Notes: generated by a model not told the origin, from the sequence alone. Numbered from the stretch's first letter, positions 15,287 to 64,000 are shown. The stretch: DNA of 64,000 nt from Patescibacteria group bacterium (GCA_035549315.1 DASZRC010000026.1:988-64987), one strand, 5' to 3'. A program made the numbers and translations.

Positions 15287-16042
15287 ATGAAAAATTTTTC
15301 CCTCTCAATCGTAATCCCATCCTACAATGAAATGACTAATTTGAGAAAAGGGGTTTTAAACAAAGTGGAGTATTATCTTAAAAAAAATAAGTATAATTTT
15401 GAGGTAATTATTGTTGATGATGGGTCAAATGATGGAAGCCGCGAGTTTGTAAAATCTTTTATAAAGGACAATAAGGGTTTTAAATTAATAGAAAATCCAC
15501 ATACGGGTAAAGCGGGCGCTGTAACGGCGGGGGTTCTGGCAGCCAAGGGTGACTATGTTTTATTTACAGATATGGATCAGGCTGTCCCAATTGATGAGCT
15601 TGAAAAGCTTTTGCCATTTGTGGAGAATGGGTATGATATTGTGATTGGCTCACGTAGTGGTTCAAGACGTGGTGCTCCCTTGACCAGAAGAATAATGTCT
15701 AAAAGCATGATGATTCTTAGGGCCGGACTGGTTGGGCTTTCCGAGATACACGATACCCAATGCGGTTTTAAGCTTTTCAATAAAAAATCGGCGCATGACA
15801 TTTTTGAAAAAATTAAATTTCTACATAAGGGTTATCATTCAATCAAAAATTCTTCAGTGACAGCAGGTTTTGATGTTGAGCTTCTTTACATAGGTAGCAA
15901 AATGGGATACAAGATAAAAGAGGTACCTATAGATTGGTTGTATGTAGAAACAAGAAGAGTAAGCCCTATTAAAGACTCCATAGATGGACTCTTGGATTTA
16001 CTTAGGATTAAAGGCAACATATCAAAGAAGGCTTACGAATAG
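15287..16042 (+). CDS. GT2 polyprenyl-phosphate sugar synthase (DPM1/CsbB/GtrB/ArnC-like)
   Basis: SIVIPSYNE...IIVDDGSNDGS...DYVLFTDMDQ...DIVIGSR, then a C-terminal amphipathic segment. This is the classic Dpm1-like architecture. Confidence 0.75.
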   Translation: MKNFSLSIVIPSYNEMTNLRKGVLNKVEYYLKKNKYNFEVIIVDDGSNDGSREFVKSFIKDNKGFKLIENPHTGKAGAVTAGVLAAKGDYVLFTDMDQAVPIDELEKLLPFVENGYDIVIGSRSGSRRGAPLTRRIMSKSMMILRAGLVGLSEIHDTQCGFKLFNKKSAHDIFEKIKFLHKGYHSIKNSSVTAGFDVELLYIGSKMGYKIKEVPIDWLYVETRRVSPIKDSIDGLLDLLRIKGNISKKAYE

Positions 16043-16044
16043 TT

Positions 16045-17196
16045 ATGAAAAAAATAATAGTTCCCCTGTGGGCAATTGGAGCATTAGCTCTATTTTTATA
16101 CTCTTTTACCCAAATTGATTTATCTTTAACATTTTCAAGAGTTTCTATTTGGCAAGGAATACAAAAAGCATTTCAATACGTTGGATATTTTAATAGACCA
16201 TTATCTACATATCTATTCATTGGTATTGTTTTGTTTTTATTCTTCCTTTATATAACTACCCTTAGATTAGTAAAACAAAATAAGTTAAAAGCAAAAACTG
16301 TTTGGATCATAATAATTGGTCTTTGTTTTGCTCTATTTCTTTCTTATAACGCTTTTTCATACGATATTTTTAATTACATTTTTGATGCAAAGATTTTGGT
16401 CCACTATGGGCAGAGTCCATATCTACATAAGGCTTTGGATTATCCTGGGGATCCAATGCTTTCCTTCATGCGCTGGACACATAGAACTTATCCCTACGGT
16501 CCTTTTTGGCTGGTCTTGACCGTACCACTATATTTCATTGGACTTGGTTACTTTATTATTACGTTTTATCTATTTAAGCTGCTTATGCTGGCAAACTATA
16601 TTGGAAGCGGATTTCTAATTGAAAAAATTGCCAAAAAATTAAATGTAGATCCATTACTTAGCCTGGCAGCATTTGTTCTTAATCCCTTAGTAATAATTGA
16701 ATCTTTGGTATCTGCTCACAATGATATTGTTATGATATTCTTTTCGCTGTTGGGACTTCTTTTCTTCTTGGAAGGAAAATATTTCAAGTCGGCAGTTGGA
16801 ATGATTATTTCTATTGCGATAAAATTTGCAACAGTTCTTATGATTCCTGCATTCTTGGCAAAGATTGTTTTTAAGGTAAAAAATGACACATTTATCTACA
16901 TACTTATAATTGGCATGTCTATAGGAGTGTTTCTTGCTTCTTATAGAACAACTTTTCAACCCTGGTATTTGGTTTTGGTTATTCCATTTGCCTCACTTGC
17001 GATTAAGAAAAAATTTGTAGCAATTCCAACTGTAATTATTTCCATCTTTGCCTTGTTTCAATATGCTCCGTACCTATATTTGGGTAATTGGGATCCTCCG
17101 GTTCCAATATATTTGTCCTATATGCTTTATGGATCAATAATTGCTTCAATAATATTGTTTTTATTCTTTACTTTTGCAAAGAGTAGGAAAAAATAA
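16045..17196 (+). CDS. polytopic membrane protein, GT-C-like (DUF2029/GT87-like?). Paralog of 53112..54242.
   Basis: About 10 TM segments. Shares SYD(I/V)FNY...AK and (V)S(A/G)HNDIVM(I/M)F blocks with the 53112 paralog. Confidence 0.4.
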   Translation: MKKIIVPLWAIGALALFLYSFTQIDLSLTFSRVSIWQGIQKAFQYVGYFNRPLSTYLFIGIVLFLFFLYITTLRLVKQNKLKAKTVWIIIIGLCFALFLSYNAFSYDIFNYIFDAKILVHYGQSPYLHKALDYPGDPMLSFMRWTHRTYPYGPFWLVLTVPLYFIGLGYFIITFYLFKLLMLANYIGSGFLIEKIAKKLNVDPLLSLAAFVLNPLVIIESLVSAHNDIVMIFFSLLGLLFFLEGKYFKSAVGMIISIAIKFATVLMIPAFLAKIVFKVKNDTFIYILIIGMSIGVFLASYRTTFQPWYLVLVIPFASLAIKKKFVAIPTVIISIFALFQYAPYLYLGNWDPPVPIYLSYMLYGSIIASIILFLFFTFAKSRKK

Positions 17197-17277
17197 TCTA
17201 AATACTTTTGTGTTAACAAAAGTATCAAAAATAACTCGCCCATTTTTACTCAAGCTTTTGATATTCATTCGTTCAAC

Positions 17278-17385
17278 GGGGGAATGTTTGCCCCCTCCGC
17301 GATCCAAGTCGATGCTTGGCCGCTGGACCTCCCCCTGTTTCACTCATTCATCTCTCAAGATTTCGTAAAAGGGGCGAGATGGATA
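17278..17385 (+). ncRNA. candidate conserved structured RNA element, copy A (5' leader of the downstream glycosyltransferase gene)
   Basis: GGGGGAATGTTTGCCCCCTCCGCGATCCAAGTCGATGCTTGGCCGCTGGACCTCCCCCTG is about 90% identical to 33782-33840. The differences fall in hairpin loops while the stems (GGGGG/CCCCC; GCGATCCAAG/CTTGGCCGC) are preserved. The downstream shared segment is ATCTCAAGA..AAAAG.GCGA. Confidence 0.4.
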
Positions 17386-17442
17386 TGAATCACTCACACT
17401 GCTTTATTCACAACTAGTTATTGGTTATAATTGATTAGTAAT

Positions 17443-19008
17443 ATGCGGATAACCCGTAATCATTTTCTGTTTTTAGGTGTAGCACTGGCAATATTAGCTT
17501 TGTACATAGTTCTTCGTTTGCTTAACATTCTAAATCTTCCTTTATTTACAGATGAGGCAATCTACATAAGGTGGGCTCAAATTGCAAAACAGGACGCTTC
17601 ATGGCGATTTATTGCTTTGGTTGACGGGAAAGGCCCCTCTTTTGTATGGGCAGAAATGCTAACTCTCAAACTGTTTAAGGATCCACTTTTTGCAGGCAGA
17701 ATGGTTTCCGTAATAACGGGTATATTTACTACAATCGGATTATTCTTTTTGGGCAACGAGGTGTTTCGTGAAAAACAAAAAGGAAAAGAATACAAAGTAT
17801 TTTCATTTACAAAAGAAACAGTGCCTTACGGTCTTCTTTCAAGTTTAATCTACGTTCTTTATCCGTTTGGATTGGTATATGACAGAATGGCTCTCTATGA
17901 CAGCATGGTTGGTATGTTTGCAGTTTGGTCTTTGTACTTGCTATTTTTATTGGTTAGAACCTTAAGGCTTGATGTAGCTTTAATAACCGGTATAGTTGCC
18001 GGAGGAGGTTTATTAACAAAAGTTAATGCAACGTTTTCTCTCTATTCAATTCCATTTTTACTTCTTATTTTTGATTGGAAACAAAAAAATGTTAAATCAC
18101 GTCTGGCAAAGTTTGTAGGCTTGTCTTTGGTAATAGTTATCCTTGCATATGGCATATATTCAATCCTTCGTCTATCGCCGTTTTACCACATAATTGGTGA
18201 GAAGACGACCCTTTTTGTGTATCCCTTTGGAGAATGGATACATCACCCCTTTACCTATTTTTATAGTAACGCCAGAGCGCTTCTTAATTGGTTCTTTATA
18301 TACATGTCTGTCCCTTCAATTATTCTTATAATAGCTTCATTTTTTGTAAATAAGAAAAACTTTATGGAAAAAGCGGTTCTATTTTTATGGTTTATTTTTC
18401 CAATTACAGCACTTGCCCTTTTTGGAAAATTAATCTACCCAAGGTTTATTTTATTTATGACATTATCATTAATACCTCTAATTTCATATTCAATTATTAA
18501 TTTGGTTGATAAATACAAAAGTCCTTTGATAAGAGCTCTAATTATTCTTTTCGCTTTTGTAATGTATATTTATGCTGATTATTTTATAATCTTTAACTTT
18601 GCTTATGCTCCAATCCCCGGAGCAGATCTTGGACAATATATTAACGGATGGAGTGCCGGGAATGGTGTTAAACAATCCGTTGCTTACTTCAACGAGCAAG
18701 CCAAAGATAAAAAAATATATATTGTTACGGAAGGTACATTCGGGCTTATGCCTTATGGGTTGGAAATGTACTTAGTTAATAACCCAAATATTAAAATTCA
18801 AGCTTTATGGCCAATAAATGATAATACTCCAAAAGATATTTTGGATAAAGCCAAGGTAATGCCAACATATGCCGTCTTTTATCAGCCATGCCCATCTTGC
18901 GGGAATGAAGGCGGAAAGATGCCTCCATTATGGAAGGGTGAAAAAGTTTTATCCGAGCAGCAAGGTATAGGTAACTCTTTCTACAGCGTTTATAGAATTC
19001 TTCCATGA
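17443..19008 (+). CDS. GT-C glycosyltransferase, PMT_2/GT39 (ArnT/Pmt-like) family
   Basis: The first loop has PLFTDEAIYIRWAQ, a DE motif. GPSFVW...DPLFAGRMVSVITG resembles the PMT_2 HPPL..RLPSAL.G region. Many TM segments. The track ORF starts at TTG 17431. Confidence 0.55.
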   Translation: MRITRNHFLFLGVALAILALYIVLRLLNILNLPLFTDEAIYIRWAQIAKQDASWRFIALVDGKGPSFVWAEMLTLKLFKDPLFAGRMVSVITGIFTTIGLFFLGNEVFREKQKGKEYKVFSFTKETVPYGLLSSLIYVLYPFGLVYDRMALYDSMVGMFAVWSLYLLFLLVRTLRLDVALITGIVAGGGLLTKVNATFSLYSIPFLLLIFDWKQKNVKSRLAKFVGLSLVIVILAYGIYSILRLSPFYHIIGEKTTLFVYPFGEWIHHPFTYFYSNARALLNWFFIYMSVPSIILIIASFFVNKKNFMEKAVLFLWFIFPITALALFGKLIYPRFILFMTLSLIPLISYSIINLVDKYKSPLIRALIILFAFVMYIYADYFIIFNFAYAPIPGADLGQYINGWSAGNGVKQSVAYFNEQAKDKKIYIVTEGTFGLMPYGLEMYLVNNPNIKIQALWPINDNTPKDILDKAKVMPTYAVFYQPCPSCGNEGGKMPPLWKGEKVLSEQQGIGNSFYSVYRILP

Positions 19009-21404
19009 AGAGTAAATTAATCTTGGTTTTATTGTTTGCTGGAATAATATCCATTGTATTTTTTCATCAAATTCTTAAAGGGTGGATGCCTTTCCCCGGA
19101 GATTTATTAGTTGGTAATCAAGAGCCATACAAATCTTATTCATACCAAGGGTTTGCCCCCGGCGCAGTTCCTAATAAAGCACAAGGTCCGGATGTAATAA
19201 AACAACTTGTTCCCTGGAAGAAATTTGCCATAGATAGTTTTAAAAAAAATCAAATTCCCTTTTGGGACCCCTATAATTTTTCAGGCAATCCTTTAATGGC
19301 AAATTTTCAAAGCGGAGTTTTTTATCCGCTAAATGTCATTTTCTTGACGTTGTCATTTCCAAGTGCTTGGACTATCTATATAGTTCTTACTCCAATTCTT
19401 TCAATATTTTTTATGTATTTATTCCTGGACAGGTTAAAGCTCAAGCCTGCTGCAAGTTTACTTGGTGGAATAAGCTTTTCTTTCTGTCTATACATGGGGG
19501 TGTGGATGGAATATGGAAATATAGGGCACACGCTTTTGTGGTTGCCGTTAATTTTATTTTTAGTTGATAGGTTTATAGATAAGCCTACGCGCTTAGATTT
19601 TTTGGGAATAGTAATTTCTTGTTTGTTGTCTATTCTTGCCGGTTATATTCAGGGAGTATTTTATATTTATGCAGTAGTTGTAATTTATTATTTTGCAAAA
19701 AGTATAAGTCTTAAAAAGATAGATAGAAAAAAGTCTTTATTTTTCTTACTAGCGCTTTTATTTCCGGTACTAATCGCGCTTCCGCAAATTTTACCAACTC
19801 TCGGGCTTTTTGTATATTCCACAAGGGGTAATTATACTTTGGATCAAATTCAAAAAAATCTTAATCCTATTTATTATTTAATAACAACTATTATCCCGGA
19901 CTTTTTTGGTAACCCGGCATCTAGAAATTTTTGGTTTAACGGTACGTATATTGAAAGGGTTTCTTATTTTGGTTTGATTCCTTTTGTCTTTGCAATTTTT
20001 GCTATTTCAACTTTATATAAAAAAATTGAAGTAAGAATATTTTCAATACTATTTGTTTTTACTTTGTTAATATCAACCGACATTTTTGTTACCAGATTTT
20101 TTTATCTAATTCCTATTCCGGTAATCTCAACAACAGTTGCAACAAGAATTCTTTCTATATTTAGTTTTTCGGGAGCAGTTCTTGCGGCTTATGGATTTAA
20201 TCATTTATTGGATCTAAAAGATAAAAAGAAGTTTTATATTATTTCTTCAATTGCCTTTATTTTTATTGCAGGGCTTTTTGTTTATGTAAATATCTATCCC
20301 AAAATCTCCAACAATGCTAATTTGATTAATGATTTTCAAACTTCAAAACGAAACATTATTATTCCAATGGCCACTATAATTTTGTTAATGCTTTCAACTT
20401 TTGCGCTTTTTCTAAAAAACTTTTCCAAGAGAAACTATAAATCATATTTATATATAATTTTAATATTAGTTATTTCATCTTTTGAGCTTTTTTATTATTT
20501 TCAAAAGATCACGCCATTTTCTCCAAAAGAATTTTTATATCCTCAAACTCCAGTTACCAAATTTTTAAAGGAAGAAGCGGGTATAAATAGAGCATGGGGA
20601 TACGGGTCTGCCTATATGGAGAGTAATTTCCAAACATTTGATAATACTTATTCAACAGAGGGTAATGATCCGCTTCACATAAAAAGTTACACAGAATTAC
20701 TTGCTGCAAGCAAGGATGGTAAGATCCCCAATATGTTGCCAAGGCCGGATGCAAATATTGCACCGGGATTTGGTAAGAGTGATTTAGTCTCTAATCTGTA
20801 TAGGAAAAAAGTGTTAGATATTACTGGCGTAAAATATATAATCAATAAAGATGAGAGTATTAATGGTAAATTTAACCCTGACTACACAACTTTTCCTGAA
20901 GATAAATATAAATTAGTCTGGCAGGAAGGTTATTGGCAGGCCTATGAAAATCTTAATGCTACGCCACGTTTTTTTGTTACAAATAATTACCAAGTAATAG
21001 ACGGTAATAAGGTTCTAGAGAAAATATTTGATAAAACTTTTGATGAAAAAAGGCAAATAGTTTTATCATCTAATCCGGGTATTAAGTCAGGGGTTTCATC
21101 AGGGAGTGCAAGACTTGTCTTCTATTCACCCAACAAAATTATAATAGATACAAATTCCAAAGTTCCTGCCCTTCTTTTTCTATCTGATAATTTCTATCCG
21201 GATTGGTCAGCAAGCGTTAATGGAAAAGAGGCTAAAGTTTTTCTGGCTGATTATACATTTAGAGCAGTTCCAGTCTCCAAAGGAAGCAGTAGGGTTATTT
21301 TTGAATTTAAAGCTAAAAAATTCTACTATGGATTATATATATCAATTGCCTCCATATTTATGCTGTTAGTTACATTGTTGGCAATGAATAAATATGAAAA
21401 ATAA
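19005..21404 (+). CDS. YfhO family membrane glycosyltransferase (GT-C)
   Basis: PFWDPYNFSGNPLMANFQSGVFYPLN is the YfhO signature. About 800 aa with an N-terminal TM bundle plus a C-terminal extracytoplasmic domain (YPDW...NG...G). Confidence 0.7.
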   Translation: MKSKLILVLLFAGIISIVFFHQILKGWMPFPGDLLVGNQEPYKSYSYQGFAPGAVPNKAQGPDVIKQLVPWKKFAIDSFKKNQIPFWDPYNFSGNPLMANFQSGVFYPLNVIFLTLSFPSAWTIYIVLTPILSIFFMYLFLDRLKLKPAASLLGGISFSFCLYMGVWMEYGNIGHTLLWLPLILFLVDRFIDKPTRLDFLGIVISCLLSILAGYIQGVFYIYAVVVIYYFAKSISLKKIDRKKSLFFLLALLFPVLIALPQILPTLGLFVYSTRGNYTLDQIQKNLNPIYYLITTIIPDFFGNPASRNFWFNGTYIERVSYFGLIPFVFAIFAISTLYKKIEVRIFSILFVFTLLISTDIFVTRFFYLIPIPVISTTVATRILSIFSFSGAVLAAYGFNHLLDLKDKKKFYIISSIAFIFIAGLFVYVNIYPKISNNANLINDFQTSKRNIIIPMATIILLMLSTFALFLKNFSKRNYKSYLYIILILVISSFELFYYFQKITPFSPKEFLYPQTPVTKFLKEEAGINRAWGYGSAYMESNFQTFDNTYSTEGNDPLHIKSYTELLAASKDGKIPNMLPRPDANIAPGFGKSDLVSNLYRKKVLDITGVKYIINKDESINGKFNPDYTTFPEDKYKLVWQEGYWQAYENLNATPRFFVTNNYQVIDGNKVLEKIFDKTFDEKRQIVLSSNPGIKSGVSSGSARLVFYSPNKIIIDTNSKVPALLFLSDNFYPDWSASVNGKEAKVFLADYTFRAVPVSKGSSRVIFEFKAKKFYYGLYISIASIFMLLVTLLAMNKYEK

Positions 21405-22941: not shown

Positions 22942-22942
22942 A

Positions 22943-25358: not shown

Positions 25359-25367
25359 TCATACAAT

Positions 25368-27730: not shown

Positions 27731-27731
27731 A

Positions 27732-28640: not shown

Positions 28641-28656
28641 CTTATAGATTTAAAAT

Positions 28657-32615: not shown

Positions 32616-32671
32616 TTTTTATACTTTATGTCAAATACTATATACTAAATACCATATACCAAATATAAATT

Positions 32672-33418: not shown

Positions 33419-33421
33419 TAA

Positions 33422-33661: not shown

Positions 33662-33781
33662 GTGACTAATTTACCACAGATTGATCCCGTAATCAACGAT
33701 TTATATTTCTTTTGTACAGACAAAAGAAACAAAAACTGCCATCGCGGTTTTGTTCATGCTTTCTATTTTAAGTCGCTTATC

Positions 33782-38894: not shown

Positions 38895-38895
38895 G

Positions 38896-55903: not shown

Positions 55904-56177
55904 TTTTAAATCTTGGTATGTTTTATTATATATATATGTCTTAAAGTCAGACAAGGATAAAATGTTCTATACTGGTTATACTAAAGATTTAAAATTAAGA
56001 TTTAAGCAACACATGGATAAAAAGGTTCAATCTACTAAAAAGAGGGGAAGGCTTAGGCTAATTTATTACGAAGCATGCTTGAATCAACAAGATGCTACCC
56101 ATAGGGAAAAATATCTCAAAACGTATTTGGGAAAAATGTTTTTAAGGAATAGACTTAAATCTTATTTAACAGGGTAA
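55887..56177 (+). CDS. GIY-YIG nuclease family protein. No canonical start codon upstream of the conserved N-terminal strand, so it may be non-canonically initiated or N-terminally decayed.
   Basis: The track ORF 55962..56177 (MFYTGYTKDLKLRFKQH...RLIYYEACLNQQDATHREKYLK) lacks the first GIY beta-strand. The same frame upstream, back to the stop at 55884, encodes SWYVLLYIYVLKSDKDK, which supplies that strand. That stretch contains no ATG, GTG or TTG. Confidence 0.45.
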   Translation, partial: LTLLNNFKSWYVLLYIYVLKSDKDKMFYTGYTKDLKLRFKQHMDKKVQSTKKRGRLRLIYYEACLNQQDATHREKYLKTYLGKMFLRNRLKSYLTG

Positions 56178-57219: not shown

Positions 57220-58484
57220 ATAAGATAAGAGAGATTATCAAAAACCCTCTAATATTTGGGAGCTCAATCATTTTAATAGGGTCATTGGCTGCTAACTTGG
57301 GTCATTATCTGTTTAATCTAATCTTGGGAAGGTGGCTTTTAACACCTTCTCAGTATGGTCTTGTAGTTTCACTAGTTTCTGTTACAGTTCTATTCTCTGT
57401 TTTTCAGCTTGCCCTTACCGGTATTTTTGCCAAATTTTCTGCCCAATTTGAAGCTTCAAAAGATAAAATTAGCCTTTCAGACCTAATTAAAAAAGGGTTT
57501 AGCTTAACCCTCTTAGTTTCCTCTCTTATCCTAGTTATTTTAATCATATTTTTTAAGTCTTTTTCAGATTTTCTGCACGTCAATAACATATTCATAGTTT
57601 TGCTAACTTTTGCATATATCTTTCTATCTATTCTCTCATCCTTGCCTATGGGAATATTGCAGGGTAGAGTAAGGGTATATGTAATATCATTTCTAAATAT
57701 TTCCAATGCAATAGTTAAGCTTATTGTGGGGGTTGGATTGGTACTTCTGGGTTATAAGGTAACCGGAGCAATGATTGGAATTGTCTTGTCTATTATCATT
57801 ATGCTTGTCATGGGCCTTTTCTTTATAAGAAAGAATGTAATTAAAAAAACTGACAAAAGAGAAAATGAACAAAAACTCTTGGTAGAAGAATTAAAAAAAT
57901 ATGGTGTTAAATTTTTCTTTGCAACTCTTGGAATAACGATGTTTACGAGCATGGATGTTATACTTGCCAGACATTTTTTCTCTCCTCTTATTGCCGGACA
58001 GTACGCAGCGCTTGCGTTAATGGGTAAGGCAATATTTTATCTAACCTTTCCAATTTATTTTGTTTTTTTCCCTCTTGTGGCACAGAAAAAAGCGAAAAAA
58101 GAAAAAGTTCACAATTTATTGATACAAGGTGCATTCCTTATACTTACCGTATCAATTCTTTCCAGTATTTTCTATTTTATTTATCCCCACATAGTGCTAA
58201 AGGTATTTTTCCCAAAGCCAGAGTACGCAGTTCTCGCAAAATATTTAGGAATATTTTCTATATTTATATTAATTTTTTCCATTGCAAATCTATTTAACAA
58301 TTTTCTTCTTTCAATCGGTAAAACAAATATCTACTTGATCAACTTGTTTTGTGCGCTTGTAATGATAATACTTGTCTATATTTTCCACTCCGCACTTATC
58401 CAAATAATTTATGCTTTAATTGGAACTTCGCTTTTACTTTTCATTTCCCTTTTTATATACTACTGGTACAATGGCCGCGATTAA
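57216..58484 (+). CDS. oligosaccharide/polysaccharide flippase (Wzx-like, MOP superfamily)
   Basis: About 12 TM segments with the polysaccharide-biosynthesis-protein-type N-terminus. Confidence 0.55.
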   Translation: MNKIREIIKNPLIFGSSIILIGSLAANLGHYLFNLILGRWLLTPSQYGLVVSLVSVTVLFSVFQLALTGIFAKFSAQFEASKDKISLSDLIKKGFSLTLLVSSLILVILIIFFKSFSDFLHVNNIFIVLLTFAYIFLSILSSLPMGILQGRVRVYVISFLNISNAIVKLIVGVGLVLLGYKVTGAMIGIVLSIIIMLVMGLFFIRKNVIKKTDKRENEQKLLVEELKKYGVKFFFATLGITMFTSMDVILARHFFSPLIAGQYAALALMGKAIFYLTFPIYFVFFPLVAQKKAKKEKVHNLLIQGAFLILTVSILSSIFYFIYPHIVLKVFFPKPEYAVLAKYLGIFSIFILIFSIANLFNNFLLSIGKTNIYLINLFCALVMIILVYIFHSALIQIIYALIGTSLLLFISLFIYYWYNGRD

Positions 58485-59223
58485 ACTATTTTCTCTGGTT
58501 CTGCCTGTTTATAAACAAAGCAATACAATTGTTAAGAATATAAATGAGTTGGAAAGTGTCCTCAAGACCTTGCCTTTCAAATCAGAACTTATTATAGTTC
58601 TCGATGGACAAGATCTGGAAACAAGCAGAAAAATTAACTCTTTAATCCAAAAAAATAAAAAAGGAAATATCAAATTTTATGAATACGAATTAAACCAAGG
58701 CAAAGGGTATGCGGTAAAGTACGGAGTCTCAAAAGCAAAAGGAGATATAATTGGTTTTATAGATGCAGGTCTTGATATCAATCCATCAGAAATAAGTTTA
58801 ATGATAAATCTTATGGAGTGGAATGATGCAGATATAATAGTTGGTAGCAAGCTTCACCCGGAATCAAAAGTTAACTACCCTTTTGCGAGAAAAGTTTTGT
58901 CTTGGGGATATAGAACCTTTACTCACCTCCTTTTTGGATTTACGGTAAGAGACACTCAAGTTGGATTAAAGATTTTTAAAGGTAAGGTTGCAAGGGATGT
59001 TTTTCCCAAAATCGTTGTAAAAAGATTTGCCTTTGATATCGAGGTTTTGGCCGTATCTTATAGGTTGGGATACAAAAAAATATTTGAAGCTCCTGTTGTT
59101 TTAGACTTCAAAAATGGTACTATTACATCTAGTAATTTTTGGAGAATAATATTTTGGATGCTTTGGGATACTATGGCTGTATTCTACAGAATCAACATCC
59201 TCCGTTATTACGATCGTAAATGA
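58471..59223 (+). CDS. GT2 polyprenyl-phosphate sugar synthase (DPM1-like)
   Basis: FSLVLPVYKQSN...LIIVLDGQD...GFIDAGLDINP...IVGSKLH...QVGLKIFK. Start is set at the ATG at 58471 rather than the track start 58420. Confidence 0.65.
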   Translation: MAAIKLFSLVLPVYKQSNTIVKNINELESVLKTLPFKSELIIVLDGQDLETSRKINSLIQKNKKGNIKFYEYELNQGKGYAVKYGVSKAKGDIIGFIDAGLDINPSEISLMINLMEWNDADIIVGSKLHPESKVNYPFARKVLSWGYRTFTHLLFGFTVRDTQVGLKIFKGKVARDVFPKIVVKRFAFDIEVLAVSYRLGYKKIFEAPVVLDFKNGTITSSNFWRIIFWMLWDTMAVFYRINILRYYDRK

Positions 59224-60326
59224 ACATATTGATACTAAATTGGCGGGATCCGGCTAATCCTAAAAGTGGTGGGGCAGAAACAGTAACAATGGAACACGCT
59301 AGTGCTTGGGTTAAGGCTGGGCACAAAGTTACCTGGTTCTCATCTATGTTTAATGGAGCAAAGCAAATTGAAATTATTCGCGGGGTCGAGGTTTTTAGGA
59401 GAGGAAATCCTCTCACTGTTTATATTCTAGCGCCACTTTTTTACCTCTTTTCTAAAAGATCATTTGATTTGGTATTAGATGAAATACATGGGTTGCCATT
59501 TCTCACTCCTCTTTATATTAAAAAACCTAAATTAGTTCTAATACATGAAGTAGCGGGTGAGATATGGTCTTATATGTTTCCTTTCCCAATTAGTATGGTA
59601 GGCAAATTCGCGGAGTCTTTATATTTTAAACTATACAAAAAAATATACTTTTGGGTCCCTAGCAAGTCTACAATGGATGACTTAATTAAGATGGGTATAA
59701 AAAAAAGATATATAAAGCTAATAAACGATGGTATAGACAACAAGCCACTTACTAAGCTTCCTATTAAAGAAAAAACCCCAACATTCATTTTTGTTAGCAG
59801 AATAGTTAAGATGAAAGGTGTTGAGGAGGTAATAAAATCATTTTTTTTCATATTAAAAGAATTAAAAGATGGGAATTTGTGGATTGTTGGTGATGGTGAC
59901 CCGGAGTATATAGAATACCTCAAGGAAGTTTTAAGGAGTTATTCAATTAGTGCAAAAGTTAAGTTTTTTGGAAGAGTATCAAATGCAGAAAAGTTCAAGC
60001 TTATGAGTAAGGCAAATTTGCTTTTACATGCATCAAGGAAAGAAGGATGGGGACTAGTGGTGATTGAGGCAGCAAGTCAGGCAACACCATCTGTAGTATA
60101 TGATGTTTCCGGTCTTAGAGATTCGGTCATTAACGGCAAAACCGGAATTGTCATTACAGAAAATAAGCCTGAAAGTATGGCAAGAGCTGCAATTGATCTG
60201 ATCAAAGATAATAGAAAGTACAATAAATACCAAAATAATTGTTTAGCGTGGGCAAAAAGATTAGAATGGGATAAGCCAATAAAAGAAAGTTTAGAGCTTA
60301 TAAAAGATGTTGAAAAGGGTATTTAG
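59220..60326 (+). CDS. GT4 glycosyltransferase (paralog of 61753..62850)
   Basis: MNILILNWRDPANPKSGGAE ... EGWGLVVIEAASQATPSVVYDVSGLRDSV. Confidence 0.75.
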   Translation: MNILILNWRDPANPKSGGAETVTMEHASAWVKAGHKVTWFSSMFNGAKQIEIIRGVEVFRRGNPLTVYILAPLFYLFSKRSFDLVLDEIHGLPFLTPLYIKKPKLVLIHEVAGEIWSYMFPFPISMVGKFAESLYFKLYKKIYFWVPSKSTMDDLIKMGIKKRYIKLINDGIDNKPLTKLPIKEKTPTFIFVSRIVKMKGVEEVIKSFFFILKELKDGNLWIVGDGDPEYIEYLKEVLRSYSISAKVKFFGRVSNAEKFKLMSKANLLLHASRKEGWGLVVIEAASQATPSVVYDVSGLRDSVINGKTGIVITENKPESMARAAIDLIKDNRKYNKYQNNCLAWAKRLEWDKPIKESLELIKDVEKGI

Positions 60327-61641
60327 TAAATCATCCAATATATTTTTGATTCTCGTTGCAATCCTCTTATTGGGGTTTTATCTAAGAGTGAATAACCTTT
60401 ATACTTGGCCTCGCCTTGGAGCTACCTTTGATGAATATGCTTGGACTTGGGAAGGTATGAATTTAATACAAAAAGGAGTTCCTGTGTCTTGGTCTCCACA
60501 CCCCCAATACAAAACAGCTAAAGATATTATTTACCAAAAAACACATTTTAGAATAGTTAAGCCGTTCTTGGAACATCCTCCGGTTTTTGGTTTAGTTGCG
60601 GGTTCATTTGCAATACTTAATGGGGCATCAGATATGTACCATTTATCAATAAATAATATCCGTCCGCTTGCTGTAATTTTGGGATTAATATCAATACTTC
60701 TTGTGTATTTACTTGTGGAAGAAGTATATGACAAAAAAACCGCATTGCTCTCCTCACTTTTATATGCAACTATTCCAACAGTTGTTGTTGGATCAAGAAT
60801 TGTACAAAATGAAAACTTTTTTATCCCTGTTTGGTTATTAAGCCTCTGGTTAATCGCAAAATATATTAAAAATAAGAAAAGCCTATATAGAAACCTAGCT
60901 GCTTTACTGTGTGTATTGTTGGTTCTTGCTAAAGTACCTTGGGTTGCTGCTTCCGGTTCGATTTTTTTAATTTTTCTTTACCTCAAGCAATATAAAAACG
61001 CCTTAATTTTCTTTTTAGGACCAATTTTGGGGTTGGCTATATACACAATATACGGATTCTACTATGATTCAAATTTATTTCTTAGCTTGTGGGGTCTTCA
61101 ATTGAATCGTTATGATTTAACATTTAATAGTATTTTTGCAATCTTTACAGAGCCATTTTTGGTTGACAGATATATGGTAGATGGATGGATATATTTTGGT
61201 TGGTTTGCATTTATCTTACTTTTGACAAAAGACATCAAGAAAAACTTTATTATTATTTTTGGGTTACTAGCTTACTTTTCAATCTTTATATTTGCAATTC
61301 CCAATGAACCCGGCCATGGATGGTATAGATATCCATTTTATCCATTTTTAGCAATTTCAATTGCAGTATTTATAATTGACTACTTTAAAAAGAATTTATT
61401 GCTAACTTTTCTTTTTATCATAATGGTAGGTACCTCTTTATTGCAATTATCTTACGGAATTAAATTTGGTTTTTCTTTTAAAGTATTTAGATTATTTCTT
61501 CTATCAACAGGAATTGTGCTAATTCCTTTATTTTTTAAAAACAAAAATATTAAAAAATTATCCTTGTTATATGCTGATGCAATGATTATATTCTTTATTC
61601 TTTTGAATATTTGGGCGGTATTGGAGTATAACGAACAGTGA
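60307..61641 (+). CDS. GT-C glycosyltransferase, PMT_2/GT39-like (short form)
   Basis: ATFDEYAWTWEGMNL is the DE motif. LEHPPVFGLVAGSFAIL is the HPPL-type block. Confidence 0.5.
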   Translation: MLKRVFSKSSNIFLILVAILLLGFYLRVNNLYTWPRLGATFDEYAWTWEGMNLIQKGVPVSWSPHPQYKTAKDIIYQKTHFRIVKPFLEHPPVFGLVAGSFAILNGASDMYHLSINNIRPLAVILGLISILLVYLLVEEVYDKKTALLSSLLYATIPTVVVGSRIVQNENFFIPVWLLSLWLIAKYIKNKKSLYRNLAALLCVLLVLAKVPWVAASGSIFLIFLYLKQYKNALIFFLGPILGLAIYTIYGFYYDSNLFLSLWGLQLNRYDLTFNSIFAIFTEPFLVDRYMVDGWIYFGWFAFILLLTKDIKKNFIIIFGLLAYFSIFIFAIPNEPGHGWYRYPFYPFLAISIAVFIIDYFKKNLLLTFLFIIMVGTSLLQLSYGIKFGFSFKVFRLFLLSTGIVLIPLFFKNKNIKKLSLLYADAMIIFFILLNIWAVLEYNEQ

Positions 61642-61752: not shown

Positions 61753-62850
61753 ATGAGAATTTTGATACTGAATTGGCGGGACATAAAACACAGTTGGGCC
61801 GGAGGGAGTGAACTGTATATTCATGAGTTGGCAAAACGTTGGGTAAAGTTAGGATCTGAGGTAACTTTATTTTGTGCTCAGGATATAGTCCAACCTCTTC
61901 CGGATAAGGAAGTTATCGACGGAATTACAATTTTTAGAAAAGGAGGAAAGTTCTCTGTTTATTTTTGGGCTTTTATTTACTACTTTAAATATTTTAGAAA
62001 TAAGACAGATGTAATACTTGATGTAGAAAATGGGATTCCATTCTTTACTCCATTCTATTCTAGAAAAAAGAAAGTTTGTTTGGTTTACCACGTTCATGGA
62101 AAACAATTTTTTTATGAGCTTCCCTTTCCAATAAGTATTCTTGGATATGTTCTTGAGAAGTACGTATTTCCACTTTTGTATAGGAATATTAATATTATGG
62201 CAATCTCCAAAAGTACTAAAAGAGAGCTTGAAAGATTGGGTTTTAAATCTAAACGGATTTCTATCGTAGAGCCGGGTGTAAGTATAAATGGCTCCAAAAT
62301 ATTATCTGTAAGTAAATACAATAAGCCAACGGTAGTTTATTTGGGTAGGATTAAGAAATATAAAAGAATAGAAATACTTGTTAATATTATGCCAAAAATT
62401 TTGGAAAAAATTCCCAATGCAAGATTGTTAATTGCAGGATGGGGAAGTGAGGCACCCTTTATAATTGATTTGGCAATGAAAAGTAAAGTTAGGAAAAGAA
62501 TTGAGTTGATAGGACCAGTTAGTGAGTATGAAAAGAAAATATTGCTCTCAAAATCTTGGATTTTTGTTAATCCTTCTTTGCATGAGGGGTGGGGAATATC
62601 TGTTATTGAGACAAATCTTATGGGAACTCCTGCAATAGGATTTAATGTACCAGGTCTTTCAGATTCAATTAAAAATGGATATAATGGGTATCTCTGTGGG
62701 GATGAAGAGGCTATGATTGGGGCAATAGTCAAAGTTTTAGAGAATAAAAAATTGAGAGAAAACTTGAGTAAAAATTCAAAAAAATGGGCACATCAGTTCA
62801 ATTGGGATAATGCTGCTAAACTTAGTTTGAGAATGATAAAAAAAACATAA
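61753..62850 (+). CDS. GT4 glycosyltransferase
   Basis: MRILILNWRDIKHSWAGGSE ... EGWGISVIETNLMGTPAIGFNVPGLSDSI. Confidence 0.75.
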   Translation: MRILILNWRDIKHSWAGGSELYIHELAKRWVKLGSEVTLFCAQDIVQPLPDKEVIDGITIFRKGGKFSVYFWAFIYYFKYFRNKTDVILDVENGIPFFTPFYSRKKKVCLVYHVHGKQFFYELPFPISILGYVLEKYVFPLLYRNINIMAISKSTKRELERLGFKSKRISIVEPGVSINGSKILSVSKYNKPTVVYLGRIKKYKRIEILVNIMPKILEKIPNARLLIAGWGSEAPFIIDLAMKSKVRKRIELIGPVSEYEKKILLSKSWIFVNPSLHEGWGISVIETNLMGTPAIGFNVPGLSDSIKNGYNGYLCGDEEAMIGAIVKVLENKKLRENLSKNSKKWAHQFNWDNAAKLSLRMIKKT

Positions 62851-62856
62851 AATACC

Positions 62857-63693
62857 GTGCAAAATAAAAAAAATCTTCCTTTAGTTTCTGTATCAATACC
62901 AACTTTAAATTCGGCAAAAACTATTGCTAAAACCCTTGATTCTTTGAAGAACCAAACTTATAAGAATATAGAAATTATTATTGGTGATGGTGGTAGTAAG
63001 GATGATACTGTCAAGATTGCTAGAAAGTATGGAGCAATCATATGTTATGGTAAAGCACTAGGAAAGGCACGATTTGAAATTTTGCAAAAAGCTCGAGGTA
63101 AATATGTCATTACAATCGATTCAGATCAATACGTTGGTAAAACTCTAATAGAAAGAGCTGTTAAAAAAATGGAAAAAAATGATTATGATGGTCTTATTTT
63201 AAATGAAGAGTCGGTAATAGGTAAAAATACATTTATCGAAAAACTTTTGGCATATGATAAATGGGTAGTAGTCTCGAGTAAAGATCATAACCCACTTTTT
63301 GGTGCAGAAATACCTAGAATGTTTAAGAGAAAGAACATGCTAACTTTTAAATGGCCAAAAACCGTATCTATTCTTGATGATGCCATTTTGTTTAAAGATA
63401 ATCTAGCAAAGCTTAAAAATGTTGGATACTTGGGGGGAGATGGGATAAAACACAAGGAGGTTGATGACTTTTTTGTTTTCTTTAAAAAATTTATGAGATA
63501 TGGTAAATTGTATTCCGGAACGCTCAAGGTATCCGGTAGTACAACGCTCGCCCACAGTCTTCCAAGACGTAATTATTTTAGAATGGAAGTTATTAAAAGG
63601 CCAAACGTTTTTTTAAGCTTAATGATCTTATACCTTATTAAGGGTGTGGCCGTAACTTGTGGTATCATTTCATACAAATTAACCGGAAAATAA
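62857..63693 (+). CDS. GT2 glycosyltransferase
   Basis: VSVSIPTLNSA...IEIIIGDGGSKDDT...YVITIDSDQ. GTG start. Confidence 0.6.
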   Translation: MQNKKNLPLVSVSIPTLNSAKTIAKTLDSLKNQTYKNIEIIIGDGGSKDDTVKIARKYGAIICYGKALGKARFEILQKARGKYVITIDSDQYVGKTLIERAVKKMEKNDYDGLILNEESVIGKNTFIEKLLAYDKWVVVSSKDHNPLFGAEIPRMFKRKNMLTFKWPKTVSILDDAILFKDNLAKLKNVGYLGGDGIKHKEVDDFFVFFKKFMRYGKLYSGTLKVSGSTTLAHSLPRRNYFRMEVIKRPNVFLSLMILYLIKGVAVTCGIISYKLTGK

Positions 63694-63694
63694 A

Positions 63695-64000
63695 TGAAAC
63701 TAAAAAACAAAAAAATTCTTTTAACAGGTGGTCATGGATTTTTAGGAAGACACGTATATAAAGCACTTCTGAAAAGAGGTGTACCTAAGGAAAATATTTA
63801 TGCTCCATCTTCCAAAGACTTAGATTTAAGAAAGTGGAGTAACTCTATTAAGGCAACTAAGGGTCAAGATATTGTTATTCATTTAGCCGCAAAAGTTGGA
63901 GGAATAGGTTTAAATCGTGATAAGCCGGCCGAGCTTTTCTATGAGAATGCATTAATGGGCATACAATTAATTGAAGCTGCAAGGCTTTCAGGAGTTGAAA
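63695..64000 (+). CDS. fcl: GDP-L-fucose synthase-like NAD-dependent epimerase/reductase (partial, continues beyond the window)
   Basis: KILLTGGHGFLGRHVYKAL...DIVIHLAAKVGGIGLNRDKPAELFYENALMGIQLIEAA resembles the Fcl N-terminus. Confidence 0.55.

Follow-up and report, generated by a model that had tools for sequence, protein, structure and literature searches.

An uncultivated groundwater bacterium of the Levybacteria type (Patescibacteria/CPR), with a tiny genome, carries a gene array of at least 49 kb, conserved among its relatives, that encodes 18 membrane enzymes. Most likely these attach lipid-carried sugars to the cell surface. We are fairly confident that this array is a conserved locus for cell-envelope glycan assembly, in which the logic of known multi-component transmembrane glycosylation systems has been multiplied and gathered in one place. 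On the best reading, the array builds at least one complex envelope glycan, and perhaps several. The original prediction, made from the sequence alone, proposed an undescribed, multi-branch extracytoplasmic glycosylation machinery. Those parts of this proposal that can be tested in silico all held, and a literature search found no published description of the locus or of one of such scale.

Layout and conservation of the array

The array extends from position 15287 to the end of the window, by which we mean the whole 64,000-nucleotide stretch analyzed (Table 1; genes are named by their first position). The ORF listing and junction table give 40 genes, fewer than the approximately 45 anticipated: 38 complete genes with products of 100 aa or longer (the 79-aa DUF5652 gene being counted among them), the 71-aa GIY-YIG ORF, and the gene truncated by the window end. 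As had been claimed, all genes but one (39 of 40) lie on the + strand, with DUF5652 the sole exception, and packing is tight, with 21 of 38 junctions overlapping and 10 more having gaps of 0-20 nt. Coding density is approximately 0.98 and GC content is uniform (0.31-0.37) across the array, which comprises several co-directional gene runs that are probably operons.

The left edge is sharp. Upstream neighbors use both strands and are unrelated, encoding an M48/M78-like peptidase, AlkZ, a rhodanese, a HAD protein, a chromate transporter, LigD and Ku. The right edge lies beyond the window, and the source contig stops 1.7 kb after it, so the length of the array is a lower bound; this remainder holds the rest of the Fcl-like gene and then a methyltransferase. 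Passengers or accessories additional to the genes originally listed are the 23S_rRNA_IVP gene, the GIY-YIG ORF and the DUF5667 gene. The first has no counterpart in three related loci (L002, L003, L005), whereas the pairing of the DUF5667-like gene with 53112 recurs in L002 and L037. The position of the DUF5652 gene is kept in L003, L005, L016, L018, L020 and L038.

At least 10 independent assemblies share the gene order, with proteins 43-69% identical to those encoded here. Colinear relatives include a 375-kb contig, a 650-kb contig (15 genes colinear) and the closed 0.76-Mb genome CP066685.1, and Chisholmbacteria retain part of the order. The named relatives are Levybacteria plus other Patescibacteria, in agreement with the CPR-like host foreseen. 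In 53 of 65 cases, the ortholog score is at least 1.5 times higher for one paralog than for the next. Each paralog therefore has its own orthologs, indicating that the expansion is old and that each copy has been retained. The GT-C set does differ among relatives: PMT_2 genes vary in number, and a DUF2079 gene or a fourth subfamily of YfhO is added.

Table 1. Features of the array, with positions counted from the first nucleotide of the window
Position	Strand	Feature	Evidence or remark
15287..16042	+	GT2, DPM1/GtrB/ArnC-like putative polyprenyl-phosphate sugar synthase, no TM helix	PF00535 1e-32
16045..17196	+	MptB/GT87-like GT-C mannosyltransferase-type membrane protein	NCBIfam MptB NF038066 44.6 bits (cutoff 40); partial MptA match; PF09594 weak; SYDIFNY motif after early TM helix
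17271..17343	+	GC-rich structured leader element, copy 1	ends 88 nt before start codon of 17431
17431..19008	+	PMT_2-type GT-C	PF13231 9.6e-8; TDEA motif after TM1
19005..21404	+	YfhO-family GT-C, 799 aa	PF09586 5.5e-25; 34% identical to 30294 and 35003
21394..22941	+	PTPS_related GT-C	PF10131 4e-10; own L038 ortholog 58% identical
22925..24664	+	PTPS_related GT-C	PF10131 3e-14; L038 ortholog 48% identical
24645..25358	+	GT2, DPM1-like putative polyprenyl-phosphate sugar synthase	PF00535 9e-29; L038 ortholog 69% identical
25368..26807	+	MOP/Wzx-type flippase	PF13440 2.8e-45; NCBIfam MOP flippase 1.3e-32
26804..27730	+	GT2, GmaR/SunS-like subfamily	PF00535; best PDB match GmaR 4.8e-17
27732..28640	+	GT2, rhamnosyltransferase/GlfT1-like	PF00535; TIGR01556 1.8e-16
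28657..30297	+	PTPS_related GT-C, C-terminal beta-sandwich and final TM helix	PF10131 1.5e-15; AlphaFold model
30294..32615	+	YfhO-family GT-C, 773 aa	PF09586 7e-35; orthologs 42-59% identical
32672..33418	+	GT2, GmaR/SunS-like subfamily	PF00535 2.6e-18
33422..33661	-	DUF5652 small 2-TM protein	PF18893 8e-21
33775..33846	+	GC-rich structured leader element, copy 2	ends 88 nt before start codon of 33934
33934..35010	+	GT4 (GT-B) glycosyltransferase	PF00534 9.5e-19
35003..37258	+	YfhO-family GT-C, 751 aa	PF09586 8e-36; orthologs 40-62% identical
37258..38184	+	GT2, C-terminal TM helix	PF00535 and PF13641
38181..38894	+	GT2, DPM1/AglJ-like putative polyprenyl-phosphate sugar synthase	PF00535 1e-32; AglJ TIGR04182 3e-32
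38845..40530	+	PTPS_related GT-C	PF10131 1.8e-16
40527..42188	+	PMT_2/PMT-type GT-C	PF13231 and PF02366; RDEA motif
42275..44227	+	650-aa GT-C (F650), OST-like fold	family without Pfam model
44214..45872	+	PMT_2/PMT-type GT-C	PF13231 4e-12; PF02366 1.5e-11
45914..46258	+	23S_rRNA_IVP four-helix-bundle protein, passenger	PF05635 4e-34
46263..47972	+	PMT_2-type GT-C	PF13231 2.4e-6; 36% identical to 44214
47972..49471	+	polytopic protein, 49468 paralog, putative GT-C	no Pfam match; TYDVGRD motif after TM1
49468..50796	+	PMT_2-type GT-C	PF13231 3e-8
50800..51588	+	GT2, GmaR/SunS-like subfamily	PF00535 1.7e-24; 36% identical to 26804
51597..52598	+	UDP-glucose 4-epimerase GalE	TIGR01179 395 bits (cutoff 262)
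52591..53115	+	secreted DUF5667-like protein, signal peptide	PF18915 weak
53112..54242	+	MptA_B/GT87-like GT-C	PF26314 (precomputed Pfam); PF09594 weak; SYDVFNY motif
54239..55903	+	PTPS_related GT-C	PF10131 1.7e-16
55962..56177	+	stand-alone GIY-YIG ORF, 71 aa, passenger	PF01541 6e-10; gene call in source record
56182..57219	+	GT4 glycosyltransferase	PF00534 5.7e-34
57216..58484	+	MOP/Wzx-type flippase	PF01943 3e-13; weak MatE match, PF01554 1.5e-6
58420..59223	+	GT2, DPM1-like putative polyprenyl-phosphate sugar synthase	PF00535 4e-17; start in source record 58471
59220..60326	+	GT4 glycosyltransferase	PF00534 7e-35
60307..61641	+	PMT_2/PMT-type GT-C	PF13231 2.3e-13; FDEYAW motif
61753..62850	+	GT4 glycosyltransferase	PF00534 3e-33
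62857..63693	+	GT2, C-terminal TM helix, TuaG-like	PF00535 2.8e-28
63694..64000	+	GDP-L-fucose synthase (Fcl)-like epimerase/reductase, cut by window end	PF01370

Cytoplasmic and membrane enzymes

Four small GT2 proteins without TM helices (15287, 24645, 38181 and 58420) belong to the DPM1/GtrB/ArnC-like family, as expected, according to Pfam and PDB profile matches. Specifically, a profile of these paralogs spans the whole catalytic domain of its best PDB match, PfDPMS 5mlz (7.6e-32), and also matches GtrB and ArnC. These full-length matches to solved structures support the view that the four look like polyprenyl-phosphate sugar synthases. Two of them adjoin MOP flippase genes (24645-25368 and 57216-58420), and the 15287-16045 gene pair is retained in L007 and L011. 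The further GT2 enzymes number six rather than about five, although their family was correctly called. They comprise a subfamily of three (26804, 32672, 50800), a pair (27732, 37258) and 62857. The three had been described as KdtX-like; they do form a subfamily, but its nearest structure is GmaR. No NCBIfam match to a named GT2 enzyme comes near its equivalog cutoff, which prevents any assignment of the donor sugars. The other cytoplasmic and flipping components are as predicted, with PF00534 matches in all four GT4 enzymes, Polysacc_synt/MOP matches in both Wzx-like flippases, a GalE above its NCBIfam cutoff, and a partial Fcl-like gene. When completed from the contig, the Fcl-like protein has 312 aa and aligns along its whole length with NF047922 Fcl (8e-81), with a score under the curated cutoff.

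At least 18 polytopic membrane proteins had been proposed, and 18 were counted, each with roughly 8-16 hydrophobic segments. They comprise three YfhO, five PTPS_related, seven PMT_2-like and two MptB/GT87-like proteins and the 650-aa protein, and Pfam and NCBIfam profile searches confirm almost every family call. Fifteen of the 18 fall to YfhO, PTPS_related or PMT_2, and paralogs within a family are 27-36% identical at the protein level. A D/E motif directly follows an early TM helix in every one of the 18. The YfhO and PTPS_related counts agree with the original prediction, as does the DUF2029/GT87-like pair 16045 and 53112 (29% identical), whose Pfam GT87 scores are under the gathering threshold while 16045 exceeds the NCBIfam cutoff for MptB. 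The PMT_2-like family was rightly recognized, but it has six or seven members instead of five. PMT_2 matches occur in 17431, 40527, 44214, 46263, 49468 and 60307, and the seventh gene, 47972, is assigned as a paralog of 49468 (28% identical; weakly similar to 44214), such that its putative GT-C identity comes through weak paralogy alone.

Neither Pfam nor NCBIfam gives a match for the 650-aa singleton (42275), whose predicted fold is most similar to the structures of STT3B, ALG12 and AglB, with an AglB-S2-like C-terminal domain. For the AlphaFold model of PTPS_related protein 28657 (pLDDT 88), the significant Foldseek matches, top 28 included, are all GT-C enzymes. As modeled, both proteins have GT-C folds and are not transporters, and both match GT-Cs that depend on polyprenyl-phosphate- or pyrophosphate-linked sugars. 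The YfhO and PTPS_related profiles are themselves homologous (hhalign probability 99.1%, E 7.8e-19). Some relatives carry the 650-aa gene away from the array, and thus linkage to the locus does not extend to every member.

A proposed pathway and its alternatives

Family and fold assignments, conserved acidic residues and conservation are observed, and from these we infer a series of reactions. GalE and the Fcl-like enzyme, judged by family, would provide nucleotide sugars, and on the cytoplasmic face the four GT4 and six other GT2 enzymes could assemble a lipid-linked or glycolipid-anchored oligosaccharide. The four soluble DPM1/GtrB/ArnC-like enzymes would load single sugars onto polyprenyl phosphate, and the two MOP/Wzx-type proteins may then move lipid-linked species across. 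Outside, the 18 GT-Cs, each with an acidic residue after an early TM helix and each an old, separately conserved orthologous group, would transfer sugars to elongate, branch and decorate envelope glycans. Given four donors for 18 transferases, each donor is probably shared by several GT-Cs, an arrangement that by analogy probably resembles mycobacterial lipomannan/LAM/arabinogalactan assembly and the ER-lumenal ALG pathway. Profile searches within the window found no priming phosphoglycosyltransferase (WecA/MraY-type or WbaP/PglC-type), Wzy polymerase, chain-length regulator, LCP ligase or GtrA-type flippase, so the start and end of a polymer pathway are either missing or beyond the contig end.

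Among acceptors, we judge a secondary wall polysaccharide or lipoglycan the likeliest, because an MptB-like enzyme is paired with a DPM1-like synthase and because YfhO and PTPS_related proteins bear beta-sandwich ectodomains. Protein glycosylation by some members, notably the 650-aa enzyme with its OST fold, is possible. A broader proposal, which we consider tenable but rather unlikely, is that most of the GT-Cs are protein O- or N-glycosyltransferases that differ in the proteins or sequons they recognize, in the manner of PMT1-7, TMTC, TMEM260, DPY19 and STT3, and whose targets would be S-layer proteins, pilins and adhesins. The 650-aa enzyme would then serve as an oligosaccharyltransferase, transferring a flipped lipid-linked glycan as one block, and indeed a 650-aa domain is fused to a Wzx-type flippase domain in the natural protein P0319. 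PMT (PF02366) matches in 40527, 44214 and 60307 fit this proposal, as do the resemblance of YfhO C-termini to PgfM1/PgfM2 of streptococcal adhesin glycosylation and the matches of the small GT2s to PgfS and AglJ. The best matches of the 26804 subfamily are the protein/peptide glycosyltransferases GmaR and SunS, and these three GT2s, together with the OST-like 650-aa fold, indicate protein acceptors at least as much as polysaccharide. However, the 650-aa family consensus lacks a WWDYG-type motif, the small secreted DUF5667 protein is the only candidate acceptor protein in the locus, and the MptB-type pair and beta-sandwich ectodomains suit glycan acceptors.

We give little credence to an ordinary Wzx/Wzy-dependent capsule, EPS or O-antigen-like locus, in which most of the polytopic proteins would act as Wzy-type polymerases or ligases, or would belong to redundant serotype-variable cassettes, in place of GT-Cs that use polyprenyl-P-sugars. 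Two Wzx-like flippases, GT2 and GT4 enzymes and nucleotide-sugar genes are typical of such loci, and the GT-C complement does vary between relatives. Yet Pfam searches gave no Wzy_C/O-antigen ligase, Wzz or export-family match, the family and structural matches of the membrane proteins point to GT-Cs, a pure Wzy pathway has no use for four DPM1-like synthases, and the paralogs form old one-to-one orthologous groups rather than recent cassettes. Finally, that the contig is a chimera of several glycosylation loci, or of paralogous repeats from different community genomes, has almost no chance of being correct, since, even though the source is a metagenome-assembled genome and repeated gene families can mislead assemblers, composition is uniform, the paralogs are far too diverged to produce mis-joins, a second deposited assembly contains a near-identical contig of 65.5 kb, and the gene order recurs in independent samples, including the long contigs and the closed genome; the idea is effectively refuted.

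Relation to known glycosylation systems

The envelope glycan assembly locus proposed here shares components with several characterized systems. The Pgf system of Streptococcus mutans (PgfS, PgfM1, PgfE, PgfM2; NF047588-90) likewise clusters a GT2 synthase, an epimerase and two YfhO-like GT-Cs, and the Levybacteria GT2s and YfhO C-termini match PgfS and PgfM1/PgfM2, respectively. However, all scores are far under the equivalog cutoffs, and Pgf consists of four genes and modifies specific adhesins.

N-glycosylation in the ER and in archaea (Agl) combines GT4 enzymes (ALG1/2/11), DPM1/ALG5 or AglJ/AglD, a MOP-type flippase (RFT1/AglR), GT-Cs (ALG3/9/12/6/8/10 or AglS) and STT3/AglB. Step for step, the Levybacteria locus follows this logic with the same fold classes; 38181 resembles AglJ most closely, and the 650-aa enzyme is structurally nearest to enzymes of these pathways. 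In contrast, its proteins lack sequence-level membership in the STT3 or ALG families, and the locus has neither the WWDYG motif nor an ALG7/WecA-type priming enzyme. We know of no evidence for N-glycoproteins in CPR bacteria.

Mycobacteria and corynebacteria assemble lipomannan, LAM and arabinogalactan with Ppm1 and with PimE, MptA, MptB, MptC, EmbA-C and AftA-D. Cytoplasmic GT4 steps are followed by extracytoplasmic polymer building, in which a dozen or more GT-Cs use few polyprenyl-phosphate-sugar donors from a TM-less DPM1-like synthase. The Levybacteria locus has the same combination of GT4 enzymes, many GT-Cs and TM-less DPM1-like synthases, and its MptB-like gene, 16045, adjoins one of the latter. 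Structures of these enzymes are also among the matches of the two modeled GT-Cs. Mycobacteria scatter their genes over 4 Mb of genome, whereas those of the Levybacteria locus lie side by side in one of about 0.8 Mb. Emb- and Aft-type sequence families are also lacking, and the window contains no UbiA/DPPR synthase; in L024, such a gene is located close to the ortholog of the 650-aa enzyme.

The closest precedent is the known module formed by a GT-A C55-P-sugar synthase, a GtrA- or Wzx-type flippase and a YfhO/PMT_2 GT-C (PMC8035078, PMC5836110), exemplified by CsbB-GtcA-YfhO, GtlA-GtlB, GacI/J-GacK-GacL, GtrB-GtrA-GtrC and ArnC-ArnE/F-ArnT (PMC8035078, PMC5836110, PMC7389260, PMC11127046). The same trio is present here, a synthase gene adjoins a GT-C or flippase gene, and a Wzx/MATE-type flippase has precedents in GacK and in the MATE-family flippase for undP-ribofuranose that partners a GT-C (PMC11127046). 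Unlike these systems, the window has no GtrA-type flippase, the synthases have no C-terminal TM helices like those in GtrB, CsbB and ArnC, and the PTPS_related proteins and 650-aa family have no characterized member. Moreover, in known organisms such sets number one to three, are dispersed through the genome and each attach one decorating sugar to a polymer that already exists, whereas the Levybacteria locus unites four synthases with 18 GT-Cs of at least six sequence families in one conserved array.

Layout and gene content of the array

From 15287 to the end of the window, the ORF listing and junction table give 40 genes (named here by their start coordinates), somewhat fewer than the roughly 45 first proposed, and 39 of these lie on the + strand, which agrees with the proposal that all but one would. 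The close packing claimed for most neighbours is also apparent, with 21 of 38 junctions overlapping and 10 more leaving 0-20 nt between genes. The genes fill the array at a coding density of about 0.98, and its GC content varies little (0.31-0.37). The preceding 15 kb carries housekeeping genes unrelated to the array on mixed strands, and 15287 is therefore taken as the true left border. Within this flank, Ku is adjacent to a three-domain LigD (phosphoesterase, ligase and primase-polymerase), which gives this Patescibacterium of reduced genome a complete NHEJ pair. The right border is beyond reach, since contig CAZPDH010000007.1 (GCA_964585445.1, 66,370 bp) stops 1.7 kb past the window, adding the remainder of the Fcl-like gene and a methyltransferase.

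Coordinates of the features discussed (window positions, except where a related locus is named)
Feature	Position	Strand	Content
Pre-array genes	first 15 kb	mixed	GH77, Fpg-like, DUF72, SDR, Ku, LigD, split chromate transporter, HAD, rhodanese, AlkZ, small metallopeptidase-like gene
Fpg/H2TH-like gene	5083-5847		
Ku and LigD	7741-10986		
AlkZ-like glycosylase	13769-14851		
Leader element, first copy	17271-17343	+	
Longest gene run	17431-33418		
DUF5652 gene	33422-33661	-	79 aa; sole minus-strand gene of the array
Leader element, second copy	33775-33846	+	
Longest gene run	33934-55903		
650-aa protein gene (42275)	42275-44227	+	
23S_rRNA_IVP gene	45914-46258		four-helix-bundle product
DUF5667-like gene	52591-53115		small secreted protein
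MptA_B/GT87-like GT-C gene	53112-54242		
GIY-YIG ORF	55962-56177		71 aa, stand-alone
GIY-YIG gene of related locus L002	L002 1-133		85 aa
650-aa gene and neighbours in related locus L024	L024 3790-9915 (CAZFRF010000001.1, 935,984 bp)		650-aa gene divergent, beside TatD and 497-aa membrane GT2; unassigned 492-aa protein; WecA/MraY-type transferase; UbiA-type prenyltransferase

Pfam, NCBIfam and PDB sequence searches uphold the family calls of the original prediction almost one by one. The cytoplasmic enzymes comprise four GT4 and ten GT2 glycosyltransferases, GalE (51597; 395 bits vs an NCBIfam cutoff of 262) and the Fcl-like product of the last gene, which at full length matches GDP-L-fucose synthase end to end (8e-81), under the strict equivalog cutoff. 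Genes 25368 and 57216 encode MOP/Wzx-type flippases. Four GT4s, two Wzx-like flippases, GalE and a partial Fcl-like gene had all been anticipated, as had four DPM1-like GT2s; the count of about five further GT2s was too low, given the total of ten. No GT2 or GT4 enzyme exceeds any NCBIfam equivalog cutoff, and thus their sugar specificities are not assignable. Pfam searches of the window found no priming phosphoglycosyltransferase, Wzy, Wzz, LCP ligase or GtrA. Specifically, of the components of a Wzx/Wzy locus only the MOP flippases are present, with no match to PF04932, PF02706, PF02397 or PF00953.

The four DPM1-like GT2s (15287, 24645, 38181 and 58420) are 237-267 aa in length and contain no hydrophobic segment. 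A profile of these paralogs aligns with PfDPMS, the Pyrococcus dolichol-phosphate mannose synthase (7.6e-32, 8-243), with GtrB (1.5e-27, 7-206) and with ArnC (6e-25, 5-229), covering the whole length of the catalytic domain, whereas ordinary GT2s match it in the N-terminal half only. PfDPMS, GtrB and ArnC all charge polyprenyl phosphate with a sugar. The C-terminal TM helices of GtrB, CsbB, ArnC and PfDPMS are absent from all four window proteins. Because TM-less DPM1-type enzymes exist, such as human DPM1 and the catalytic domain of mycobacterial Ppm1, this absence excludes the GtrB/CsbB subtype and not the activity. Two of these candidate donor synthase genes sit next to a MOP flippase gene (24645-25368 and 57216-58420), and 15287 adjoins the MptB-like 16045, a pair that recurs in related loci L007 and L011.

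A GC-rich element of about 73 nt occurs in two copies in this genome of 33% GC. The copies occupy two of the three large intergenic gaps, each ending 88 nt 5′ of the start codon that opens one of the longest gene runs. The 18-mer CCCCCTCCGCGATCCAAG has exactly two occurrences in the window, vs 0.02 expected, and both copies adopt a common nested hairpin fold of 22 pairs with 2 compensatory changes and 0 broken pairs. The element may be an operon-leader RNA, either of an antitermination type like EAR or JUMPstart or a riboswitch, or else a genome-specific repeat. Rfam yields no credible match in the two leader regions and only tRNA-Glu in the whole window. No further copies occur in 38 fetched related loci, and the 10 matches from a single metagenome pattern scan lie in high-GC coding DNA and are attributed to chance. 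Scanned for promoters and terminators, the three large gaps gave nothing above shuffled expectation.

Several small genes are interspersed among the larger ones. The 23S_rRNA_IVP gene lies between two PMT_2 paralogs and looks like a recent insertion, because it is missing there in all related loci examined. The GIY-YIG ORF fills the gap ahead of the last gene run, and its counterpart in L002 directly precedes the GT4 gene opening the fetched array stretch; both could be small mobile or selfish genes located where operons meet. The DUF5667-like protein has a clear signal peptide, and its gene, which overlaps the downstream one, is always directly 5′ of an MptA_B/GT87-like GT-C gene (window, L002 and L037), making its product a candidate accessory subunit or acceptor. 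Finally, the DUF5652 protein has 2 TM helices, is encoded between a GT2 and a GT4 gene, and keeps its minus-strand position in at least six relatives. Possible roles are that of a small activator comparable to GacJ or of a flippase component.

Polytopic proteins and the 650-aa family

Eighteen array genes encode polytopic products with about 8-16 hydrophobic segments each. Three exceed the gathering threshold for YfhO (PF09586, cutoff 28.5), with 88 bits for 19005, 121 for 30294 and 124 for 35003, and five paralogs (21394, 22925, 28657, 38845 and 54239) exceed that for PTPS_related (PF10131, cutoff 26.4) at 39-60 bits. These numbers and the 650-aa singleton are as first described, and the total agrees with the at least 18 given there. 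The five PMT_2-like proteins of that description become six hits (17431, 40527, 44214, 46263, 49468 and 60307, all above the PF13231 cutoff of 26.1 at 28-51 bits) plus 47972, which has no PF13231 match and is counted as a 28% identical paralog of 49468. For the remaining pair, 16045 reaches 44.6 against the NCBIfam MptB cutoff of 40 and falls below that of Pfam GT87 (20.3 vs 25), and 53112 has PF26314 in the precomputed table only, plus weak GT87.

The GT-C fold was modelled for the two least certain cases, 42275 and 28657, with the other 16 proteins assigned by Pfam, NCBIfam or paralogy. The model of the PTPS_related protein 28657, built from 33 sequences (pLDDT 88), has GT-C proteins as its top 28 Foldseek hits and, at its C-terminus, shows a beta-sandwich with one last TM helix after it. 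The profiles of YfhO and PTPS_related are clearly related by homology (hhalign probability 99.1%, E 7.8e-19, 340 columns) and have a C-terminal module in common. PDB sequence searches with these two profiles gave no match, and a PMT_2 trio gave only a marginal match to ArnT (E 0.07). All 18 proteins retain an acidic motif shortly behind one of the first TM helices. It reads DE in the PMT_2 type, (H/D)D in PTPS_related (loop Asp D34 in 28657), P(S/G)D in YfhO and SYD(I/V)FNY in the MptB-like pair, and in the 650-aa family D128 is invariant. These residues probably lie in the first extracytoplasmic loop, given its presumed sidedness. We know of no characterised member of either the PTPS_related proteins or the 650-aa family.

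The product of 42275, the 650-aa protein, has no Pfam or NCBIfam match even at E = 1. Its model, based on a 51-sequence alignment, has pLDDT 92 and pTM 0.93, and every significant Foldseek match among PDB structures, 18 in number, is a GT-C protein (AglB, STT3, PglB, DPY19, AftA and ArnT), vs transporters only at E > 0.03 and with TM-scores near 0.1. Unrelated transporters, raised in the original prediction as an identity that these membrane proteins might prove to have, are thus rejected by direct fold comparison for two families and by profile assignment for the rest. As modelled, the 650-aa protein resembles STT3 and AglB in architecture, with a membrane core and a C-terminal globular domain like that of AglB. 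It differs from these GT66 enzymes in its failure to match PF02516 and in the absence of a WWDYG-like motif from the 51-sequence consensus.

Homologs of 42275 fall into more than 120 clusters at 39-54% identity, and the few with a source name belong to Patescibacteria, most often Levybacteria. A scan of one genome per species found 19 loci, mostly in Levybacteria/Levyibacteriota, plus a distant match in Chisholmbacteria. The family numbers at least 1,708 representatives (50% identity) at E <= 1e-3, and 654 at 1e-30. Shorter members do not have the first three TM helices. Relatives of 42275 (P0288, P0308, P0319 and others) include, in other lineages, fusion proteins about 1,030-1,160 aa long, 14 among the top 150, in which an N-terminal extracytoplasmic domain of about 490 aa, absent from the window, precedes the 650-aa domain; this extra domain has no Pfam match and no significant PDB match (marginal 3lm3, E 0.025). 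The natural fusion P0319 (1,639 aa) joins an N-terminal Wzx-type domain and an unassigned ectodomain to the 650-aa domain, and thereby ties the enzyme to lipid-linked substrates that have been flipped. Some Levybacteria have the 650-aa gene apart from the array, and in one case (L024) its neighbours include UbiA- and WecA/MraY-type genes, a set reminiscent of polyprenyl-phosphoribose and priming enzymes.

Conservation and age of the array

Gene neighbourhoods, combined with best-hit mapping of all locus ORFs onto window genes, bear out the comparative synteny that had been proposed as a check. Independent samples keep an order that includes YfhO (30294), DUF5652 on the minus strand, GT4 (33934), YfhO (35003), GT2 (37258) and GT2 (38181), followed by a GT-C gene, the 650-aa gene and the PMT_2 genes 44214 and 46263, with 43-64% protein identity across syntenic loci. 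A 650-kb contig follows the order of the 15 window genes from 19005 to 38181 barring a three-gene insertion, and in the closed genome CP066685.1 (762,565 bp) 16 genes in a row are of the kinds found in the array. The more distant loci L021-L023 share the order in part, reading PTPS, Wzx, GT2 and, further on, GT2, GT2, 650-aa, GT2, GT4, YfhO, GT2 and PMT_2. A second deposited assembly contains a near-identical 65.5-kb contig. The synteny in independent samples, including the 650-kb contig and the closed genome, rules out an assembly chimera, the other way in which the original prediction could have failed. Content does vary between genomes, and relatives have a fourth YfhO subfamily, a DUF2079 GT-C or differing numbers of PMT_2 genes. 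The TPA_asm MAG records of nine of the related loci (L006, L008, L011, L013, L014, L016, L018, L021 and L024) are titled 'uncultured Gammaproteobacteria bacterium', which looks like a deposit placeholder or mislabel because of their Levybacteria-type gene content and GC of roughly 30-48%.

Paralogs within the window are 27-36% identical, vs 45-69% between orthologs elsewhere and their own window copy, which rules out recent tandem amplification. In 53 of 65 cases, the score of an ortholog against its best paralog is at least 1.5 times that against the second-best. Since each paralog has its own closer orthologs, the duplications predate the divergence of these lineages, with every copy retained. 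This retention argues for distinct, non-redundant activities. The best paralog pairs join the second and third gene runs (24645/38181, 27732/37258, 28657/38845, 30294/35003 and 26804/50800), which suggests an ancient duplication of a five-gene unit in which a donor synthase and two GT2s were accompanied by one PTPS_related and one YfhO gene.

A proposed assembly route and its known counterparts

The array most likely encodes a glycan assembly machine that combines build-up in the cytoplasm, flipping and elongation outside. GT4 and GT2 enzymes, with GalE and Fcl, would make a lipid- or glycolipid-anchored glycan in the cytoplasm. This glycan would be flipped across the membrane, as would polyprenyl-phosphate sugars, with the MOP proteins as putative flippases. 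On the outside, the GT-Cs would lengthen, branch and decorate it. The ratio of donor synthases to GT-Cs is 4 : 18, with polyprenyl-(pyro)phosphate-linked sugars as the putative donors of the latter.

The MptB-like member and the ectodomains of beta-sandwich type lead us to favour a wall polysaccharide or lipoglycan as the acceptor. Glycosylation of proteins is a serious rival, if a somewhat unlikely one, to which the OST-like fold of the 650-aa enzyme, the PMT matches, the resemblances to Pgf and AglJ and the GT2s like GmaR/SunS all point. We consider it quite improbable that the array is, in all of the following steps together, a bacterial counterpart of the eukaryotic/archaeal lipid-linked-oligosaccharide pathway. 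Here, GT4 and GT2 enzymes would assemble the glycan on a polyprenyl carrier at the cytoplasmic side, an RFT1-like MOP protein would flip it, and GT-Cs using four polyprenyl-phosphate sugars would elongate and branch it outside like ALG3/9/12/6/8/10. The 650-aa enzyme, through its STT3/AglB-like core and AglB-like C-terminal domain, would then transfer the product en bloc to surface proteins as a new family of oligosaccharyltransferases that lack WWDYG and occur largely in Patescibacteria, and a new structured leader RNA would control both long gene runs.

Patescibacteria, with genomes of about 0.7-1 Mb and most biosynthetic capacity missing, are believed to live attached to host cells. The array, at 49 kb or more, equals about 6% of the genome of a closed 0.76-Mb relative. 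That so much DNA is devoted to extracytoplasmic glycosylation suggests that surface glycans are central to these organisms, with host attachment, phage evasion and envelope stability without self-made lipids among the plausible uses. The 18 GT-Cs, spread over six or more families and forming old orthologous groups, each conserved in its own right, next to candidate donor synthases, are compact experimental targets. A reconstitutable system of this kind could show how few lipid-linked donors serve many transferases acting outside the cell.

Searches of 8 million full texts for glycosyltransferases in CPR, Patescibacteria or Levybacteria found no description of the array. Glycans go unmentioned in a 2024 perspective on the biology of Patescibacteria, and all that a genetics paper (Cell 2023) records is an EPS cluster of three genes in a saccharibacterium. 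In known multi-component transmembrane glycosylation, a GT-A enzyme forms a C55-P-sugar, which is moved by a flippase of the GtrA or Wzx type, and a GT-C of the YfhO or PMT_2 type adds the sugar to a wall polymer (PMC8035078, PMC5836110, PMC7389260); the version using undP-ribofuranose has a MATE-family flippase (PMC11127046). Characterised Firmicutes have at most three such sets in dispersed locations, whereas the window has four synthases and 18 GT-Cs in one array. To our knowledge, only mycobacterial LM/LAM/arabinogalactan assembly and the ER ALG/GPI/PMT network otherwise run a dozen or more GT-Cs on few lipid-linked donors. The parts of the array are of known kinds, and what is new is their scale and consolidation, with 18 GT-Cs in at least 49 kb, together with the fact that a CPR lineage has conserved them and the existence of a sizeable GT-C family that no Pfam model covers.
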